Below, in pieces: positions 1 through 10,075 of a stretch of DNA of 46,746 nt (the stretch's first letter is position 1; each line of letters starts with the position of its first letter). The stretch comes from Struthio camelus (Eukaryota). Made by a program: the position numbers and the translations under genes. A model generated the notes under the pieces. That model ran no database searches. It saw nothing but the letters and a program-made list of their open reading frames with translations, and was not told where the DNA came from. The stretch covers positions 935,107 to 981,852 of the forward strand of contig NC_090973.1 of the NCBI RefSeq assembly GCF_040807025.1, given 5' to 3'.

Positions 1-1090
1 CCATGGTGGGTCCCGATGTCCCCTGAGGAGATGTTTTGCCCCCTAGTGACCTCACCTGCCCCACAGCAAGCTCACCCAACCCCCAGAGACCTCACCTGCC
101 CCCCGGTGACCTCACCCGCCCCAGTGAGGAGCTCATTTGCCCCATGGTGGGTCCTGAAGTCCCCCGAGGAGATGTTTTGCCCCCTAGTGACCTCCTCTGC
201 CCCTCGGTGACCTCACCTGCCCCCGTGATGAGTTCGTCTGCCCCATGGTGGGTCCCGATGTCCCCTGAGGAGATGTTTTGCCTCCTGATGACCTCACCTG
301 CCCCGCAGCAAGCTCACCCAACCCCCAGAGACCTCACCTGCCCCCCGGTGACCTCACCCGCCCCAGTGAGGAGCTCATTTGCCCCATGGTGGGTCCTGAA
401 GTCCCCCGAGGAGATGTTTTGCCCCCTAGTGACCTCCTCTGCCCCTCGGTGACCTCACCTGCCCCCGTGATGAGTTTGTCTGCCCCATGGTGGGTCCCGA
501 TGTCCCCTGAGGAGATGTTTTGCCCCCCGGCGACCTCCTCTGCCCCTCGGTGACCTCATCTGTCCCCCCGGTGACCTCACCCACCCCAGTGAGGAGCTCA
601 TCTGCCCCATGGTGGGTCCCGATGTCCCCTGAGGAGATGTTTTGCCTCCTGATGACCTCATCTGCCCTCCAGTGACCTCATCTGTCCCCCCGGTGACCTC
701 ACCTGCCCCCGTGATGAGCTCATCTGCCCCATGGTGGGTCCCAATGTCCCCTGAGGAGATGTTTTGCCCCCTAGTAACCTCCTCTGGCCCCCGGTGACCT
801 CACCCATCCCCATGATGAGTTCATCTGCCCCACGATGGGTTGAGATGTCCCCTGAGGAGATGTTTTGCCCCCTAGTGACCTCATCCGCCCCACAGCAAGC
901 TCACCCGCCCCCCAGAGACCTCACCTGCCCCCCGGCGACCTCACCCGCCCCCGTGATGAGCTCATCTGCCCCACGGTGAGTCCCAATGTCCCCTGAGGAG
1001 ATGTTTTGCCCCCTCGGCGACCTCCTCCACCCCCCGGTGACCTCCTCTGTCCCCCCCCCCTCCGGCGACCTCACCCACCCCACAGCAACC
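1..1090 (+). repeat. Tandem array of about 120-bp units (about 242-bp higher-order repeat), about 9 copies, derived from the MVP start-codon region
   Basis: Units recur at about 1, 140, 243, 383, 485, 605, 725, 832 and 965. Each carries ..gccccATGGtgggtcc..cacagcaagctcacc..acctcacctgccccccggtgacctcacccgcccc. These are the same blocks that flank the true ATG at 1080-1135. Confidence 0.8.
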
Positions 1091-1131
1091 TCACCTGCCC
1101 CCCGGGAGCCCGCCCGCCCCCCGGCCGCCCC

Positions 1132-1250
1132 ATGGAGGACCCCGTGATCCGCATCCCGCCCTACCACTACATCCACGTGCTCGACCTCAACTCCAACGTC
1201 ACCCGCGTCGAGGTCGGGCCCCTCACCTACATCCGCCAGGACCATGAGAG
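1132..1250 (+). CDS. MVP: Major vault protein, coding exon 1 (initiator ATG; [39 protein letters not shown] + 2 nt)
   Basis: Translation matches the vertebrate MVP N-terminus ([31 protein letters not shown]). ATG sits in context gccccATGG. Donor gag|GTGGGT at 1250/1251, phase 2. Confidence 0.85.
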
Positions 1251-1319: not shown

Positions 1320-4300
1320 GGCGTCTGGGGGGGGCCTCTATAGGGCGCTTTATGGGCCTACGGGGGCTCTGTGGGGTTGTGGGGTTCCTATAGGGCTTTT
1401 TAAGGCTGTGTGAGACCCTATAGGGGGTTCTTTAGGGCTTCGGGACGTCTATAGGGCTCTGCGGTTCCTATAGAGTCCTGCATGGCTCTGACAGGCTTTA
1501 CAATAAATTATATAGATAATATGATGTATCTATAGGACGTTGTGGTATCTATAGGACTCTATAAGGCCATGGGGGGGGTATATAAGGGACTCTCCAGAGT
1601 TAAGGAGCCTCTATAGGGCTCTGGGCTTCCTTCAGGGCTATGGGGAGTGTTGAAGGGTTCTTTAGGGCTGGGGGGGGGGCTATAGGATGTGGGGGGGGTA
1701 TGGAGGGACTCTATAGGGCTGCGGGGTCCCTATAGGATCCATGGGGAGGTGGGGGGGGTCTCTGTGGGGCTGAGGGGGCTCTATAGGGCTCCGGGGACCC
1801 TCTAGGGCTGTAAGGGGTGTTGAGGGGCTCTCTAGGGGTGTGTGGGGGGGGTCCCTATAGGGCCATAAGGAGTTTGAGGGGCTCTATAGGGTTGGGGGGG
1901 GTCCATAGGGCTACGGTGGGTGTTAGGGAGCTCTATAGGGCCGTAAGTACTTCTACAGGGCTGTGGGGGTTGGGGGGGCTTTATGAAACTATGGTGTTCC
2001 TATAGGGCCTGGCAGTATGTTGAGGTCTTTATAGGGAAGCGAGGTGCCTAGCGGGGTTTCTATAGGGTTATGGGGATGCTGGAGGGCTCTATAGAGCCTG
2101 GAAGAGGTGTTGGGGGGCTCTGTAGGGCTGTGGGGCCCCTCCAGGGCTGGAGGGGGTGTTGGGGGCCCTCTAGGGCTGTGGGGGCTCTATAGAGTCGTGG
2201 GGGGTGCTGGGGGGGGGTCCTGTAGGGCTGTGGGGCCCGTATAGGGCCAGGGGGTGTCAGAGGGCTCTATAGGTTGTGGGGGGTGGGTGCTGGGGGGCTC
2301 TATAGGGTGCTGAGGGGCATCAGGGGCTCCTATAGGGTTGTAGGGGGTCTGGGGGGCTCTATAGGGCACTAAGGGGGGTGGGGGACTCCTATAGGGCTGG
2401 TAGGGGGTGTGGGGGCCTCTCTAGGGTGCTAAGGTGTATTGGGGACTCCTATAGGGCTGGGGGGGCTGGGGGGGTTCTATAGGGTGCTAAGGGGTGTGGG
2501 GGACTCCTATAGGGGCTGGGGGGGCTCTATGGGGTGCTAAGGGGTGTGGGAGACTCCTATAGGGCTGGGGGGGCTCTATAGGGCACTAAGGGGTGTGGGA
2601 GACTCCTATAGGGCTGGGGGGGCTCTATAGGGCACTAAGGGGTGTGGGAGACTCCCATAGGGCTGGGGGGGCTCTATGGGGCACTAAGGGGTCTGGGAGA
2701 CTCCTATAGGGCTGGGGGAGTCTCTAGGGTGCTAAGGGGTCTGGGGGACTCCTATAGGGCTGGGGGGTCTCTAGGGTGCTAAGGGGTCTGGGGGGCTCCT
2801 ATAGGGCTCCTAGGGGGGCTGGGGGACTCCTATAGGGCTGGGGGGGTCTCTAGGGTGCTAAGAGGTCTGGGGGGCTCCTATAGGGCTCCTAGGGGGGCTG
2901 GGGGACTCCTATAGGGCTGGGGGGGTCTCTAGGGTGCTAAGGGGTCTGGGGGGGCTCCTATAGGGCTCCTAGGGGGGCTGGGGGACTCCTATAGGGCTGG
3001 GGGGGTCTCTAGGGGGCTAAAGGGTCTGGGGGGCTCCTATAGGGCTCCTAGGGGGGCTGGGGGACTCCTATAGGGCTGGGGGGGTCTCTAGGGTGCTAAG
3101 GGGTCTGGGGGGCTCCTATAGGGCTCCTAGGGGGGCTGGGGGACTCCTATAGGGCTGGGGGGGTCTCTAGGGTGCTAAGGGGTCTGGGGGACTCCTATAG
3201 GGGCTGGGGGGGCTCTATGGGGTGCTAAGGGGTGTGGGAGACTCCTATAGGGCTGGGGGGGCTCTATAGGGCACTAAGGGGTGTGGGAGACTCCCATAGG
3301 GCTGGGGGGGCTCTATGGGGCACTAAGGGGTGTGGGGGACTCCTATAGGGCTGGGGGAGTCTCTAGGGTGCTAAGGGGTCTGGGGGACTCCTATAGGGCT
3401 GGGGGGGCTCTATGGGGCACTAAGGGGTGTGGGGGACTCCTATAGGGCTGGGGGGGTCTCTAGGGTGCTAAGGGGTCTGGGGGACTCCTATAGGGCTCCT
3501 AGGGGGGCTGGGGACTCCTATAGGGCTGGGGGGGTCTCTAGGGTGCTAAGGGGTCTGGGGGACTCCTATAGGGCTGGGGGGTCTCTAGGGTGCTAAGGGC
3601 TCTGGGGGGCTCCTATAGGGCTCCTAAGGGGTCTGGGGGCTCCTATAGGGCTGGGGGGGTCTCTAGGGGGCTAAAGGGTCTGGGGGGCTCCTATAGGGCT
3701 CCTAGGGGGGCTGGGGACTCCTATAGAGCTGGGGGAGTCTCTAGGGTGCTAAGGGGTCTGGGGGACTCCTATAGGGCTGGGGGGTCTCTAGGGTGCTAAG
3801 GGCTCTGGGGGGCTCCTATAGGGCTCCTAGGGGGGCTGGGGGACTCCTATAGGGCTGGGGGGGTCTCTAGGGGGCTAAAGGGTCTGGGGGGCTCCTATAG
3901 GGCTCCTAGGGGGGCTGGGGACTCCTATAGGGCTGGGGGAGTCTCTAGGGTGCTAAGGGGTCTGGGGGGCTCCTATAGGGCTCCTAGGGGGGCTGGGGGA
4001 CTCCTATAGGGCTGGGGGGGCTCTAGGGTGCTAAGGGGACTGGGGGGCTCCTATAGGGCTCCTAGGGGGGCTGGGGGCTCCTATAGGGCTGGGGGGTCTC
4101 TAGGGTGCTAAGGGGTCTGGGGGGCTCCTATAGGGCTCCTAGGGGGGCTGGGGGACTCCTATAGGGCTGGGGGGGTCTCTAGGGTGCTAAGAGGTCTGGG
4201 GGGCTCCTATAGGGCTCCTAGGGGGGCTGGGGGACTCCTATAGGGCTGGGGGGGTCTCTAGGGTGCTAAGGGGTCTGGGGGGGCTCCTATAGGGCTCCTA

Positions 4301-5790
4301 GGGGGGCTGGGGGACTCCTATAGGGCTGGGGGGGTCTCTAGGGTCCTAAGGGGTCTGGGGGGCTCCTATAGGGCTCCTAGGGGGGCTGGGGGACTCCTAT
4401 AGGGCTGGGGGGGTCTCTAGGGTGCTAAGGGGTCTGGGGGGGCTCCTATAGGGCTCCTAGGGGGGCTGGGGGCTCCTATAGGGCTGGGGGGTCTCTAGGG
4501 TGCTAAGGGGTCTGGGGGGGCTCCTATAGGGCTCCTAGGGGGGCTGGGGGCTCCTATAGGGCTGGGGGGGTCTCTAGGGTGCTAAGGGGTCTGGGGGGCT
4601 CCTACAGGGCTCCTAGGGGGGCTGGGGGCTCCTATAGGGCTGGGGGGGTCTCTAGGGTCCTAAGGGCTCTGGGGGGCTCCTATAGGGCTCCTAGGGGGGC
4701 TGGGGGACTCCTATAGGGCTGGGGGGGTCTCTAGGGTGCTAAGGGGTCTGGGGGGCTCCTATAGGGCTCCTAGGGGGGCTGGGGGCTCCTATAGGGCTGG
4801 GGGGATCTCTAGGGTCCTAAGGGCTCTGGGGGGCTCCTATAGGGCTCCTAGGGGGGCTGGGGGACTCCTATAGGGCTGGGGGGGTCTCTAGGGTGCTAAG
4901 GGGTCTGGGGGGCTCCTATAGGGCTCCTAGGGGGGCTGGGGGACTCCTATAGGGCTGGGGGGGTCTCTAGGGTGCTAAGGGGTCTGGGGGGCTCCTATAG
5001 GGCTCCTAGGGGGGCTGGGGGCTCCTATAGGGCTGGGGGGGTCTCTAGGGTGCTAAGGGGTCTGGGGGGCTCCTATAGGGCTCCTGGGGGGGCTGGGGGC
5101 TCCTATAGGGCTGGGGGGGTCTCTAGGGTGCTAAGGGGTCTGGGGGACTTCTACAGGGCTCCTAGGGGGGCTGGGGGCTCCTATAGGGCTGGGGGGGTCT
5201 CTAGGGTGCTAAGGGCTCTGGGGGGCTCCTATAGGGCTCCTAGGGGGGCTGGGGGCTCCTATAGGGCTGGGGGGGTCTCTAGGGTGCTAAGGGGTCTGGG
5301 GGGCTCCTATAGGGCTCCTAGGGGGGCTGGGGGCTCCTATAGGGCTGGGGGGGTCTCTAGGGTGCTAAGGGGTCTGGGGGGCTCCTATAGGGCTCCTAGG
5401 GGGGCTGGGGGACTCCTATAGGGCTGGGGGGGTCTCTAGGGTGCTAAGGGGTCTGGGGGACTCCTATAGGGCTCCTAGGGGGGCTGGGGGCTCCTATAGG
5501 GCTGGGGGGTCTCTAGGGTGCTAAGGGGTCTGGGGGGCTCCTATAGGGCTCCTAGGGGGGCTGGGGCCTCCTATAGGGCTGGGGGGTCTCTAGGGTGCTA
5601 AGGGGTCTGGGGGGCTCCTATAGGGCTCCTAGGGGGGCTGGGGGACTCCTATAGGGCTGGGGGGGGTCTCTAGGGTGCTAAGGGGTCTGGGGGACTCCTA
5701 TAGGGCTGGGGGGGTCTCTAGGGTGCTAAGGGGTCTGGGGGGCTCCTATAGGGCTCCTAGGGGGGCTGGGGGGGTCTCCGAGGGGCTCCA
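1320..5790 (+). repeat. CTATAGGG-core minisatellite in MVP intron 1. It is degenerate at 1320-2400. At 2400-5790 it is a homogeneous unit of about 80 bp with about 40 copies.
   Basis: Unit: gggggactcctatagggctgggggggtctctagggtgctaaggggtctggggggctcctatagggctcctaggggggct, repeated nearly identically. Confidence 0.9.
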
Positions 5791-5897
5791 GGGCGGCGGG
5801 TGGCGCTGCGGGGGGGGGGTTCCCTAGGGCCCCCCGGGGAAGGGGAGGGGGGGTGCAGCGTAGGCACCTGCGTGGTGTCCGTCCCCCCGCACCCCAG

Positions 5898-6093
5898 GGT
5901 GGCCTTCGCCCCCGTGCGCATGGTGACGGTGCCGGCGCGGCACTACTGCACGGTGCTGCACCCCGTGGCCCGGGCGCCCGGCGGGGAGGCCCTGCTGGAC
6001 GGCACCGGGCAGGTCCGGCTGCGGCACGGCGACCTGGAGGTGCGCCTGGCCCAGGAGCCCTTCCCTCTCTACCCCGGCGAGCAGCTCCAGCAG
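5898..6093 (+). CDS. MVP: MVP coding exon 2 (R)[65 protein letters not shown]
   Basis: Acceptor accccag|G at 5897/5898 completes the Arg codon split from exon 1. Strong identity to the human MVP exon (FAPMRMVTVPPRHYCTV...[25 protein letters not shown]). Donor cag|GTACCT at 6093/6094. Confidence 0.9.
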
Positions 6094-6099
6094 GTACCT

Positions 6100-9000
6100 A
6101 TGGCCCCTATAGACCCCCTATAGACCCTATAGCCCTCCCCGCGACCCCTCCGTCCCCGGTCCGGCTGGGGCTCGGCGACCTGGAGGTGCGCCTGGCCCAG
6201 GAGCCCTTCCCTCTCTACCCCGGCGAGCAGCTCCAGCAGGTACCTATGGCCCCTATACACCCCCTATAGCCCCTATAGACCCTATAGCCCTCCCCGCGAC
6301 CCCTCCGTCCCCGGTCCGGCTGCGGCACGGCGACCTGGAGGTGCGCCTGGCCCAGGAGCCCTTCCCTCTCTCCCCCGGCGAGCAGCTCCAGCAGGTACCT
6401 ATGGCCCCTATACACCCCCTATAGCCCCTATAGCCCTCCCCGCGACCCCTCCGTCCCCGGTCCGGCTGCGGCACGGCGACCTGGAGGTGCGCCTGGCCCA
6501 GGAGCCCTTCCCGCTCTACCCCGGCGAGCAGCTCCAGCAGGTACCTATGGCCCCTATACACCCCCTATAGACCCCCTATAGCCCCTATAGCCCTCCCCGC
6601 GACCCCTCCGTCCCCGGTCCGGCTGCGGCACGGCGACCTGGAGGTGCGCCTGGCCCAGGAGCCCTTCCCGCTCTACCCCGGCGAGCAGCTCCAGCAGGTA
6701 CCTATAGCCCCTATACACCCCCTATAGCCCCTATAGACCCTATAGCCCTCCCCGCGACCCCTCCGTCCCCGGTCCGGCTGCGGCACGGCGACCTGGAGGT
6801 GCGCCTGGCCCAGGAGCCCTTCCCTCTCTACCCCGGCGAGCAGCTCCAGCAGGTACCTACGGCCCCTATAGACCCCCTATAGCCCCTATAGCCCTCCCCG
6901 CGACCCCTCCGTCCCCGGTCCGGCTGCGGCTCGGCGACCTGGAGGTGCGCCTGGCCCAGGAGCCCTTCCCGCTCTACCCCGGCGAGCAGCTCCAGCAGGT
7001 ACCTATGGCCCCTATACACCCCCTATAGCCCCTATAGCCCCTATAGCCCTCCCCGCGACCCCTCCGTCCCCGGTCCGGCTGCGGCACGGCGACCTGGAGG
7101 TGCGCCTGGCCCAGGAGCCCTTCCCTCTCTCCCCCGGCGAGCAGCTCCAGCAGGTACCTATGGCCCCCATACACCCCCTATAGCCCCTATAGCCCCTATA
7201 GCCCCTATAGCCCTCCCCGCGACCCCTCCGTCCCCGGTCCAGCTGCGGCTCGGCGACCTGGAGGTGCGCCTGGCCCAGGAGCCCTTCCCTCTCTCCCCCG
7301 GCGAGCAGCTCCAGCAGGTACCTACGGCCCCTATACACCCCCTATAGCCCCTATAGCCCCTATAGCCCTCCCCGCGACCCCTCCGTCCCCGGTCCGGCTG
7401 CGGCTCGGCGACCTGGAGGTGCGCCTGGCCCAGGAGCCCTTCCCTCTCTACCCCGGCGAGCAGCTCCAGCAGGTACCTATGGCCCCTATACACCCCCTAT
7501 AGCCCCTATAGACCCTATAGCCCTCCCCGCGACCCCTCCGTCCCCGGTCCGGCTGCGGCTCGGCGACCTGGAGGTGCGCCTGGCCCAGGAGCCCTTCCCT
7601 CTCTACCCCGGCGAGCAGCTCCAGCAGGTACCTATGGCCCCTATAGACCCCCTATAGCCCCTATAGCCCCTATAGCCCTCCCCGCGACCCCTCCGTCCCC
7701 GGTCCGGCTGGGGCTCGGCGACCTGGAGGTGCGCCTGGCCCAGGAGCCCTTCCCTCTCTCCCCCGGCGAGCAGCTCCAGCAGGTACCTATGGCCCCTATA
7801 CACCCCCTATAGCCCCTATAGACCCCCTATAGTCCCTATAGCCCTCCCCGCGACCCCTCCGTCCCCGGTCCGGCTGCGGCTCGGCGACCTGGAGGTGCGC
7901 CTGGCCCAGGAGCCCTTCCCTCTCTACCCCGGTGAGCAGCTCCAGCAGGTACCTACGGCCCCTATACACCCCCTATAGCCCCTATAGCCCCTATAGCCCT
8001 CCCCGCGACCCCTCCGTCCCCGGTCCGGCTGGGGCTTGGCGACCTGGAGGTGCGCCTGGCCCAGGAGCCCTTCCCTCTCTACCCCGGCGAGCAGCTCCAG
8101 CAGGTACCTACGGCCCCTATACACCCCCTATAGCCCCTATAGCCCCTATAGACCCTATAGCCCTCCCCGCGACCCCTCCGTCCCCGGTCCGGCTGCGGCT
8201 CGGCGACCTGGAGGTGCGCCTGGCCCAGGAGCCCTTCCCTCTCTACCCCGGCGAGCAGCTCCAGCAGGTACCTATGGCCCCTATACACCCCCTATAGCCC
8301 CTATAGCCCCTATAGACCCTATAGCCCTCCCCGCGACCCCTCCGTCCCCGGTCCGGCTGCGGCACGGCGACCTGGAGGTGCGCCTGGCCCAGGAGCCCTT
8401 CCCTCTCTACCCCGGCGAGCAGCTCCAGCAGGTACCTATGGCCCCTATACACCCCCTATAGCCCCTATAGCCCCTATAGCCCTCCCCGCGACCCCTCCGT
8501 CCCCGGTCCGGCTGCGGCACGGCGACCTGGAGGTGCGCCTGGCCCAGGAGCCCTTCCCTCTCTCCCCCGGCGAGCAGCTCCAGCAGGTACCTACGGCCCC
8601 TATAGACCCCCTATAGCCCCTATAGCCCCTATAGCCCCTATAGCCCTCCCCGCGACCCCTCCGTCCCCGGTCCGGCTGCGGCACGGCGACCTGGAGGTGC
8701 GCCTGGCCCAGGAGCCCTTCCCTCTCTACCCCGGCGAGCAGCTCCAGCAGGTACCTATGGCCCCTATACACCCCCTATAGCCCCTATAGCCCCTATAGCC
8801 CCTATAGCCCTCCCCGCGACCCCTCCGTCCCCGGTCCGGCTGGGGCTTGGCGACCTGGAGGTGCGCCTGGCCCAGGAGCCCTTCCCTCTCTCCCCCGGCG
8901 AGCAGCTCCAGCAGGTACCTATGGCCCCTATACACCCCCTATAGCCCCTATACACCCCCTATAGCCCCTATAGCCCTCCCCGCGACCCCTCCGTCCCCGG

Positions 9001-10075
9001 TCCGGCTGGGGCTTGGCGACCTGGAGGTGTGCCTGGCCCAGGAGCCCTTCCCTCTCTCCCCCGGCGAGCAGCTCCAGCAGGTACCTACGGCCCCTATACA
9101 CCCCCGATAGCCCCTATAGACCCCCTATAGCCCCTATAGTCCCTATAGCCCTCCCCACGACCCCTCCGTCCCCGGTCCGGCTGCGGCTCGGCGACCTGGA
9201 GGTGCGCCTGGCCCAGGAGCCCTTCCCTCTCTCCCCCGGCGAGCAGCTCCAGCAGGTACCTATGGCCCCTATACACCCCCTATAGCCCCTATAGCCCTCC
9301 CCGTGACCCCTCCGTCCCCGGTCCGGCTGCGGCTTGGCGACCTGGAGGTGCGCCTGGCCCAGGAGCCCTTCCCTCTCTCCCCCGGCGAGCAGCTCCAGCA
9401 GGTACCTACGGCCCCTATAGACCCCCTATAGCCCCTATAGACCCCCTATAGCCCCCTATAGCCCCTATAGCCCTCCCCGCGACCCCTCCGTCCCCGGTCC
9501 GGCTGCGGCTCGGCGACCTGGAGGTGCGCCTGGCCCAGGAGCCCTTCCCTCTCTCCCCCGGCGAGCAGCTCCAGCAGGTACCTACGGCCCCTATAGACCC
9601 CCTATAGCCCCTATAGACCCCCTATAGCCCCTATAGCCCCTATAGCCCTCCCCGCGACCCCTCCGTCCCCGGTCCAGCTGCGGCACGGCGACCTGGAGGT
9701 GCGCCTGGCCCAGGAGCCCTTCCCTCTCTACCCCGGCGAGCAGCTCCAGCAGGTACCTATGGCCCCTATACACCCCCTATAGCCCCTATAGCCCTCCCCG
9801 CGACCCCTCCGTCCCCGGTCCGGCTGCGGCACGGCGACCTGGAGGTGCGCCTGGCCCAGGAGCCCTTCCCGCTCTACCCCGGCGAGCAGCTCCAGCAGGT
9901 ACCTACGGCCCCTATAGACCCCCTATAGACCTATAGACCCCCTATAGCCCTCCCCGCGACCCCTCCGTCCCCGGTCCGGCTGCGGCACGGCGACCTGGAG
10001 GTGCGCCTGGCCCAGGAGCCCTTCCCTCTCTCCCCCGGCGAGCAGCTCCAGCAGGTACCTACGGCCCCTATACAT
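6100..10075 (+). repeat. About 25 tandem copies (150-165 bp each) of the 3' 81 nt of MVP exon 2 plus the splice donor CAG|GTACCT plus (cccctatag)n
   Basis: ggcgacctggaggtgcgcctggcccaggagcccttccc...gagcagctccagcaggtacct recurs at about 6174, 6318, 6469, 6626, 6783, 6927, 7085, 7249, 7400, 7561, 7712, 7878, 8037, 8197, 8358, 8518, 8679, 8841, 9006, 9184, 9342, 9510, 9676, 9828 and 9982. Confidence 0.95.

Follow-up and report, generated by a model that had tools for sequence, protein, structure and literature searches.

A tandem array upstream of the ostrich MVP start codon appears to copy the gene's own 5' splice sites and fits avian sequence stuttering

Introduction

Genes on the dot chromosomes of chicken carry local repeats that have been described as 'sequence stuttering' (Hron et al. 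2026, Genome Biol Evol 18:evag038, PMC12954441). Its marks include imperfect tandem repeats recognized by TRF, a strictly local origin of each repeat family, extensive variation in length among individuals of one species, and a position in the GC-rich euchromatin of a dot microchromosome (PMC12954441). The same study uses 'exon stuttering' for the copying of an exon edge, together with its splice site, into the intron; in the cases described the source lies within about one base of the border or at it, and the exon part measures 20 to 187 bp (Hron et al. 2026, PMC12954441). The gene for major vault protein, MVP, is not mentioned in the accessible part of the supplementary text of that study (PMC12954441). 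A second described system concerns MVP itself: the human gene has a splice variant with a long 5' leader that includes an inhibitory small uORF (Holzmann et al. 2001, FEBS Lett 494:99, as cited in PMC3483550 and PMC3875758).

We analyzed a window of 46,746 nucleotides of ostrich (Struthio camelus) DNA, by which we mean the whole stretch studied, at whose 5' end a tandem array had been predicted upstream of the MVP start codon. Positions are those of the window unless another species is named, and a slash within a sequence marks an exon-intron border.

Results

The window contains a plus-strand MVP gene, which tblastn places from 1132 to about 29375, and its GC content is 61 to 81%. We identify it as ostrich MVP because a near-full-length query retrieves the RefSeq protein 'major vault protein [Struthio camelus]' (P0241), with 97% identity to a rough concatenation of the exons (emu, 91%), and single exons match the ostrich protein at 98 to 100% identity. 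Comparison with human MVP by tblastn places the canonical start codon at 1132-1134 and the first coding exon at 1132-1250 (plus strand, ending in ...QDHER), directly followed by a GT donor at 1251. The canonical MEDPVIRIP start is found in at least 13 bird MVP models.

The predicted array upstream of the MVP ATG is real and goes well beyond chance, as judged by TRF, by anchor spacing and by the match of its last unit, and it adjoins the start region. It occupies 1 to 1106 on the plus strand, the window opening inside it, and is locus-specific. Phasing by C-runs resolves it into sub-units of 19 to 21 nt, which are grouped in higher-order units of 101, 122 and 141 nt with a super-period of 242 nt. 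Over 1-1056, TRF reports a period of 242 nt (4.2 copies, 81% matches) and one of 122 nt (8.7 copies), with a base period of 20 nt; the periods of 20, 101, 122, 141 and 242 nt are found at 66 to 86% matches, and TRF coverage of 1-1131 is 98%. The anchor GGAGATGTTTTGC occurs at 27, 168, 269, 410, 511, 633, 755, 856 and 997, which gives successive units of 141, 101, 141, 101, 122, 122, 101 and 141 nt and a last unit that begins at 997, and cutting at C-runs yields 54 sub-units, 49 of them 19 to 21 nt long. Against dinucleotide shuffles, this last unit (997-1106) scores z=24 for its match to the array, and we therefore set the end of the array 26 nt before the ATG at 1132. The intervening plus-strand segment, 1107-1131, is a GC-rich spacer with CCGCCC boxes in which array membership is not demonstrable. 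Of the nine units, seven keep the string gccccATGGtgggtcc intact, and their ATGs fall at 3, 144, 245, 386, 487, 609 and 731; the two gene-proximal units show cacgATGGgttg (835) and ccccacgGTGAGTcc (969-981) in its place. These seven ATGG sub-unit copies, of the form gccccATG/GTGGGTCC, are distributed over 1-751 on the plus strand, and a donor-like GTGGGT directly follows each ATG (3 to 731).

Within the window the array is strictly local, confined between neighboring exons, and does not behave as a dispersed satellite. For the 242-nt unit, even the best hit in 1251-46746 (32.8 bits) falls short of significance, GTGACCTC is found 14 times inside the array and a single time in the rest of the window, and TRF finds different families of repeat units in the other MVP introns of the window. 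An Rfam scan of 1-1400 at E<=1 gave no match. We also considered a coding tandem repeat (an N-terminal repeat domain), for which we looked for a frame-keeping unit length, a frame that stays open across units and a conserved peptide; it was ruled out by the lengths of the sub-units (19 to 21 nt) and units (101, 122 and 141 nt) and by a longest array ORF of 102 codons.

For the ostrich exon-intron borders we used predicted proteins from the NCBI annotation. The N terminus of ostrich RefSeq MVP (MMSSSAPRWVEM...SSSAPR) is the exact translation of 812-975 joined to 1086-1250. The first of these plus-strand segments (812-975, 100% in tblastn), the leader exon and first coding part of the model, is a segment of the array; the modeled CDS starts at ATG 812, and the nearest in-frame stop upstream is at 752. 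The model thus implies a leader intron of 110 nt on the plus strand (976-1085, GT...AG) with the donor ccccacg/GTGAGTcc and the acceptor caccccacag/C, and its junction leaves 46 nt of 5' leader in the ATG exon (1086-1131, plus strand), the same length as in emu. This acceptor is exactly the ccccacag/caacctcacc that had been proposed for a spliced non-coding exon, and its AG (1084-1085) is invariant in five birds, namely ostrich, emu, gull, ibisbill and ptarmigan.

Both modeled junctions recur within the array. The terminal acceptor sub-unit together with the first 21 nt of the ATG exon (1078-1106, plus strand) still belongs to the repeat family: the acceptor and exon start at 1070-1106 are identical to 70-106 at 32 of 36 positions (z=10.6). 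Acceptor-unit copies of the form CCCCACAG/CAAGCTCACC lie on the plus strand at 59-76, 301-318 and 888-905, with putative borders at 66/67, 308/309 and 895/896; the acceptor-type sub-unit CCCCACAGCAAGCTCACC is present in three upstream copies and as the terminal CCCCACAGCAACCTCACC at 1078, and the window holds four matches to the acceptor 18-mer where 0.04 would be expected. The terminal donor unit (960-995) is likewise identical to 717-753 at 34 of 36 positions (z=14.5), the two differences being ACG/ATG and GTGAGT/GTGGGT. From the junctions of the RefSeq model, the repeated ATGG unit therefore reads as a copy of the leader-exon donor, and the ACAG unit as a copy of the acceptor with about 21 nt of exon.

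The original prediction held that the array units are copies of the start-codon context, and this part does not stand. Its quoted start-region string is exact, yet the acctcacctgcccccc part of that string is the last array sub-unit. The segments 1107-1250, 1123-1160 and 1132-1250 match the array no better than dinucleotide shuffles do (z from -0.1 to 1.0), the start-context match GCCCCATGGnGG / GCCCCATGGnGGnnCCCG is equaled by 63 of 300 shuffles, and the 9-mer GCCCCATGG is not rare, with nine occurrences in the window against 5.7 expected. The ATGG units share 16 to 19 of 21 positions with the terminal donor sub-unit CCCCACGGTGAGTCCCAATGT (969) and 14 to 15 of 21 with the start unit. An origin of the ATGG unit from the 3' end of the ATG exon and its donor (CCATGAGAG/GTGGGT) was also tried and rejected (1232-1275 versus array, z=0.5). 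We thus replace a partly supported reading by one in which, as far as the sequence comparisons go, the array would copy the gene's own 5' splice sites and not demonstrably its start codon.

Seven-codon uORFs (MVGPDVP or MVGPNVP) follow five of the seven gccccATGG ATGs, which agrees in part with the proposal that each array ATG opens such a short uORF; those at 144 and 386 instead open ORFs of 102 and 55 codons. The description of these ATGs as near-Kozak holds only for the G at +4, since position -3 is C in every ATGG copy and in the real start. Complete removal of the array by splicing would give a 46-nt leader free of upstream ATGs; an unspliced leader would have 32, two of which open ORFs that overlap the main ATG. 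In a leader like that of the RefSeq model, five of seven upstream ATGs (812, 815, 845, 860 and 956) are in frame with MVP and hence are not short uORFs, and the uORFs present start at ATG 759 (12 codons) and ATG 835 (two codons, strong context). All seven MVGPDVP-type ATGs lie upstream of both the modeled CDS start at 812 and the in-frame stop at 752. The modeled mRNA includes at least 164 nt of array, so that upstream ATGs can be present, most of them in frame. The modeled exon holding this sequence may begin at a TSS within the array.

Extended MVP N termini are found in the models of ostrich, emu, hoazin (X2), gull (two models) and ptarmigan (X1). Only the last 29 or so residues are common to the ostrich and emu extensions, and loosely so; this poor conservation argues for incidental rather than selected coding. 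A search with the N-terminal exons for bird RNA-derived contigs with a 5' UTR returned only short contigs from mammals and other non-bird species.

The original prediction also offered, should the 5' UTR not extend into the array, a promoter built of tandem copies of its own core. Base composition and the other birds speak against this. The CpG observed/expected ratio of the array is 0.35 to 0.37, which is intron-like (0.21 to 0.43 in 200-nt windows over 1-1000), and the array falls short of a CpG island as defined by GC >0.5, CpG o/e >0.6 and a length of at least 200 bp. The ratio is 0.7 to 0.85 over 1001-1300, a stretch that begins in the last array unit and takes in the ATG exon. We rejected this peak as a local promoter mark because high values are common to all MVP exons (0.67 to 1.31). 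In gull, a CpG island (o/e about 0.9) covers modeled exon 1, about 1.1 kb upstream of the ATG, and the array is bordered on its 5' side by a GC-box block in gull, ptarmigan and emu (6160-6300 of the emu locus). With CpG-rich or GC-box DNA upstream of the array in other birds, the ostrich promoter should lie upstream of the window, and by orthology we infer that the ostrich array is transcribed leader or intron and not promoter.

The closest counterpart is in emu, where the same 20-mer family extends over about 3.7 kb (6331-10032 of the emu locus, L004) and proximal units of 160 and 180 nt are colinear with the ostrich higher-order unit (z=33). The emu model has a homologous intron of 108 nt (cgccca/GTGAGTcc ... 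ccccatag/T), with 10041 joined to 10150 of that locus, and, as in ostrich, 46 nt from acceptor to start. At the canonical start the emu assembly has ACG (ctgccccACGGaggac); the emu model begins 29 codons upstream, inside the array. Gull (two loci), ibisbill and ptarmigan have shorter, degenerate arrays in 20-nt phase at the same position. Two models, gull MVP-like and ptarmigan X1, skip the array by joining an exon that lies 5' of it to the orthologous acceptor, and the distance from that acceptor to the ATG is 56 nt in the gull MVP-like model and 49 nt in ptarmigan. A single intron does not reproduce the bona fide gull MVP model, a LOW QUALITY protein, which was used only qualitatively. Array length thus ranges from about 0.27 kb in ptarmigan and about 0.6 kb in gull to at least 1.1 kb in ostrich and 3.7 kb in emu.

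The ostrich array matches the gull and ptarmigan arrays at z of about 6, which is statistically weak evidence of homology given that a control ostrich intron array reaches z=5.7; we therefore judged neognath homology by position and by long exact motifs. One of these, the 14-mer CCCCACAGCAAGCT, is confined to the upstream arrays in both the emu and the gull loci. The turtle MVP locus has no such array, and its acceptor lies 5 nt before the ATG, from which we take it as ancestral that the leader intron has its 3' end shortly before the start codon. On the sequences compared, the array is a bird feature.

Tandem repeats are not restricted to the leader. TRF covers 75.7% of the window and 46 to 98% of every MVP intron longer than 700 nt, and 0% of the MVP coding exons with the exception of exon 2. 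With three-quarters of the window repetitive, such an array is typical at MVP, contrary to the expectation that it would be unusual for a gene of this type. At 6012-10074, a 155-nt unit made of the last 27 codons of coding exon 2 plus the GT donor is present in about 26 copies, and in a tinamou contig the 3' end of the first coding exon is likewise repeated. At the leader, the copied part of the ATG exon is about 21 nt, with borders taken from predicted models, and so falls at the short end of the published 20 to 187 bp for exon stuttering. The emu gene is on a chromosome-level record of 3.31 Mb, and the ostrich record is 4.79 Mb.

Discussion

The explanation that we favor, with a probability of roughly two in three, is that a gene-specific minisatellite of the sequence-stuttering kind fills the transcribed 5' leader and first-intron region of MVP, bounded by the ATG exon on one side and, on the other, by a promoter that would lie upstream of the window. 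The 20- to 21-nt unit of the array, CTGCCCC-AYRG-YGAsCTCAyC, itself resembles a splice site: the ACAG form corresponds to the acceptor of the ATG exon (CCCCACAG/CAA) and the ACGG or ATGG form to a GT donor (CCCCAyG/GTGrGT). The higher-order unit would then repeat the acceptor with the first 20 or so nucleotides of the ATG exon, plus the donor of the leader exon, and gccccATGG would be a donor-type sub-unit with T for C, not demonstrably copied from the start codon. Local slippage, unequal exchange or gene conversion probably gave rise to the array and would continue to change it. Splicing would remove most of it. The ostrich and emu models exonize the last repeat, and if the ostrich 975/1086 splice is used, it would set five upstream AUGs in frame. 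We regard the array as most likely a tolerated by-product and not a dedicated regulatory device, with possible side effects in the form of cryptic splice sites and, where isoforms keep repeat sequence, an N-terminal extension or a load of uORFs.

A different seed for the family is conceivable, namely a duplicated 5' edge of the ATG exon that included the start codon (the CCCCATGG start context), the ATGG units being its decayed copies. The C-run phase does run on to the ATG, with sub-units beginning at 1078, 1098, 1117 and 1128; the ATGG units are the sub-units nearest to the start unit (14 to 15 of 21); the gull ATG follows tgcccc in exact 20-nt phase; CTGCCCCAyGG is common to the emu and gull starts and the array core; and copying of exon edges is seen twice elsewhere in bird MVP. 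Yet the similarity at the start does not exceed that of shuffled controls, GCCCCATGG is common in the window, the ATGG units are clearly nearer to the donor unit (34 of 36), and ibisbill has ggtctccATGG without the unit core before its ATG. Moreover, ATGG, ACGG and ACAG are alternatives at one place in the unit and are separated by single transitions (C/T or G/A), so an ATG can arise without copying of a start codon, and we consider a start-codon seed unlikely. It is also rather improbable that the MVP 5' UTR lies deep in the array, with many upstream AUGs, including MVGPDVP uORFs throughout, throttling translation. This would be in keeping with the array sequence of at least 164 nt in the ostrich RefSeq model, with read-through into the array in the hoazin X2 and gull models, with the 32 upstream ATGs of an unspliced leader (two with ORFs overlapping the main ATG), and with the small uORF that inhibits expression in the human 5'-leader splice variant (Holzmann 2001, cited in PMC3483550). 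However, the seven MVGPDVP-type ATGs all precede the modeled CDS start and the stop at 752, each is directly followed by a donor-like GTGGGT, and five of the seven upstream ATGs of the modeled leader are in frame and make no uORF; at least 13 bird models have the canonical MEDPV start, and the gull MVP-like and ptarmigan models skip the array entirely.

Two further explanations touch the nature of the array itself. That it is the MVP promoter, repeating its own core sequence, could draw on its place directly 5' of the first coding exon, on Sp1-like CCGCCC motifs and on the CpG o/e of 0.7 to 0.85 over 1001-1300; but the array is as depleted in CpG as the introns (0.35 to 0.37), high ratios are general to MVP exons (0.67 to 1.31), and gull, ptarmigan and emu have their CpG island or GC-box block 5' of the array, with gene models whose transcripts run across the array, which leaves a promoter role highly improbable. 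An assembly artefact, a collapsed or mis-expanded low-complexity region, is scarcely credible even though GC-rich bird repeats assemble poorly and a short-read ibisbill contig is gapped exactly here: homologous arrays occupy the same position in the independent emu, gull (two loci), ibisbill and ptarmigan assemblies, and the ostrich RefSeq protein agrees with the window sequence, although copy number may be inexact.

Within the favored explanation of a stuttering array in the leader, one extension can be put forward only tentatively, and we doubt it: in ratites the last repeat may be a real coding leader exon, with MVP starting at an array-derived AUG. Ostrich AUG 956 and its emu counterpart are both in frame, 22 codons upstream. 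Such a start is perhaps obligatory in emu, because the canonical ATG there reads ACG, a change that could stem from gene conversion by the surrounding CTGCCCCACGG units. If so, ratite MVP would gain a Pro/Ser-rich N-terminal tail, stuttering would have abolished the start codon of a structural protein that is deeply conserved and would also have supplied the substitute, and it would follow, were the leader exon truly translated, that stuttering can create new coding sequence.

On the favored explanation, stuttering, which was reported from chicken in 2026, also affects a palaeognath, and it involves a 5' leader intron as well as exon edges that do not code. This would also mean that one stutter array can persist in place across deep bird divergences while its copy number shifts about ten-fold. 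For annotation the locus carries a warning, in that repeat-borne ATGs and splice sites lead to spurious-looking N-terminal extensions in several bird MVP models.

How far the array resembles known systems can be set out for three of them. In human MVP, splicing of the leader is said to decide whether an upstream AUG enters the mRNA, with a single, unique uORF. The gene is the same, and the three extra acceptor copies in ostrich would lengthen the leader if used; in contrast to the one unique uORF of the human variant, ostrich has a repeat array whose modeled AUGs are mostly in frame. The human leader variant is a functional parallel to the ostrich array and not its homologue. With classical minisatellites (VNTRs) the array has in common a base unit of 10 to 60 nt, a GC-rich and strand-asymmetric composition, higher-order periodicity and growth that is presumed to proceed by slippage, unequal exchange or gene conversion. 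It differs from them in that its unit derives from, or doubles as, MVP's own splice sites, in being one of many arrays in MVP, and in a position conserved across deep bird lineages. Stuttering in chicken resembles the array in several respects. The repeats form imperfect tandem blocks, tens to hundreds of bases in size, that are local and lie only between exons; the gene is GC-rich, and repeats fill almost all of its long introns; and there are blocks that include an exon edge with a splice donor or acceptor and thus offer potential alternative splice sites. Whereas the chicken cases involve coding exons, the ostrich array lies in the 5' leader and first intron, and its copied edges are non-coding and short (about 21 nt plus the donor unit); it is also old, being present in ostrich and emu and degenerate in neognaths, and its last unit is exonized in gene models. 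With these differences, the MVP array fits as a further case of the sequence stuttering known from avian dot-chromosome genes.

The upstream arrays and the emu start codon

In emu, where the array upstream of MVP is homologous to that of ostrich, ACG stands in place of the canonical MVP start codon (ctgccccACGGaggac; L004 10196-10198, GCA_036370855.1 CM072418.1, L004 being the emu MVP locus). The annotated emu MVP protein starts 29 codons further upstream, within array-derived sequence, and has T where the first M of the canonical start would stand; CTGCCCCACGG, which flanks the emu ACG, is identical to the core sequence of the most frequent array unit. A kinesin gene in divergent orientation, whose CDS begins at L004 289, is separated from the MVP start by ~9.7 kb (L004 289-10000) that consist almost entirely of tandem arrays. 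These fall into three distinct families: positions 620-2600 hold a CCCCTATAGCC-type array, 2782-6135 a 19-mer (GGGGGGGGTGAATAACCCC), and 6331-10032 the MVP 20-mer. A ATGGnGGCGCCGG motif, located at L004 496 inside a CpG-rich segment, is common to this emu locus and to the exon-1 regions of gull and ptarmigan.

The ostrich upstream array is marked by a recurring motif, GTGACCTC, with 14 occurrences in window 46-1044, spaced ~20-160 nt apart; the rest of the window holds a single copy, against an expectation of 2.4. Within the motif lies TGACCT, which is the nuclear-receptor half-site AGGTCA read on the opposite strand. The emu proximal units also carry the motif. Because gull units carry GAGGTCTC in its place, the half-site likeness is probably incidental.

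MVP copies and protein homologues

Two MVP loci are present in the black-headed gull assembly, and the arrays upstream of them are nearly identical. A 9.6-Mb chromosome record carries a full-length gene; the second locus, an 'MVP-like' copy, lies on a 3.2-Mb contig. The MVP-like product (503 aa) has numerous R-to-W-type changes and a divergent tail, so that this copy is probably either a duplicate undergoing decay or an alternative haplotig. In the homologous-protein search, matches were limited to proteins of a length near that of the query, and full-length bird MVPs, including that of ostrich itself, were recovered only with a near-full-length query; the partial MVP queries therefore misled as to the closest species.

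Exon-edge copying in MVP coding exons

The tinamou (Nothoprocta perdicaria) contig L003 (1-300) begins within a tandem array. Here the 3' portion of the first MVP coding exon (...VTRVERGPQCYVRQDHER) is repeated along with the GT donor of that exon, and copies lie at ~70-133 and 240-300.

In the ostrich window, an array at 6012-10074 carries the edge of MVP coding exon 2 in ~26 copies, with units of 146-176 nt (mostly 155 nt), each running from the final 27 codons of the exon through its GT donor into the first part of the intron. The reading frame is still intact in many of these copies. As an example of exon stuttering, in which an exon edge and its splice site are copied as local tandem repeats (Hron et al. 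2026), this array is striking.
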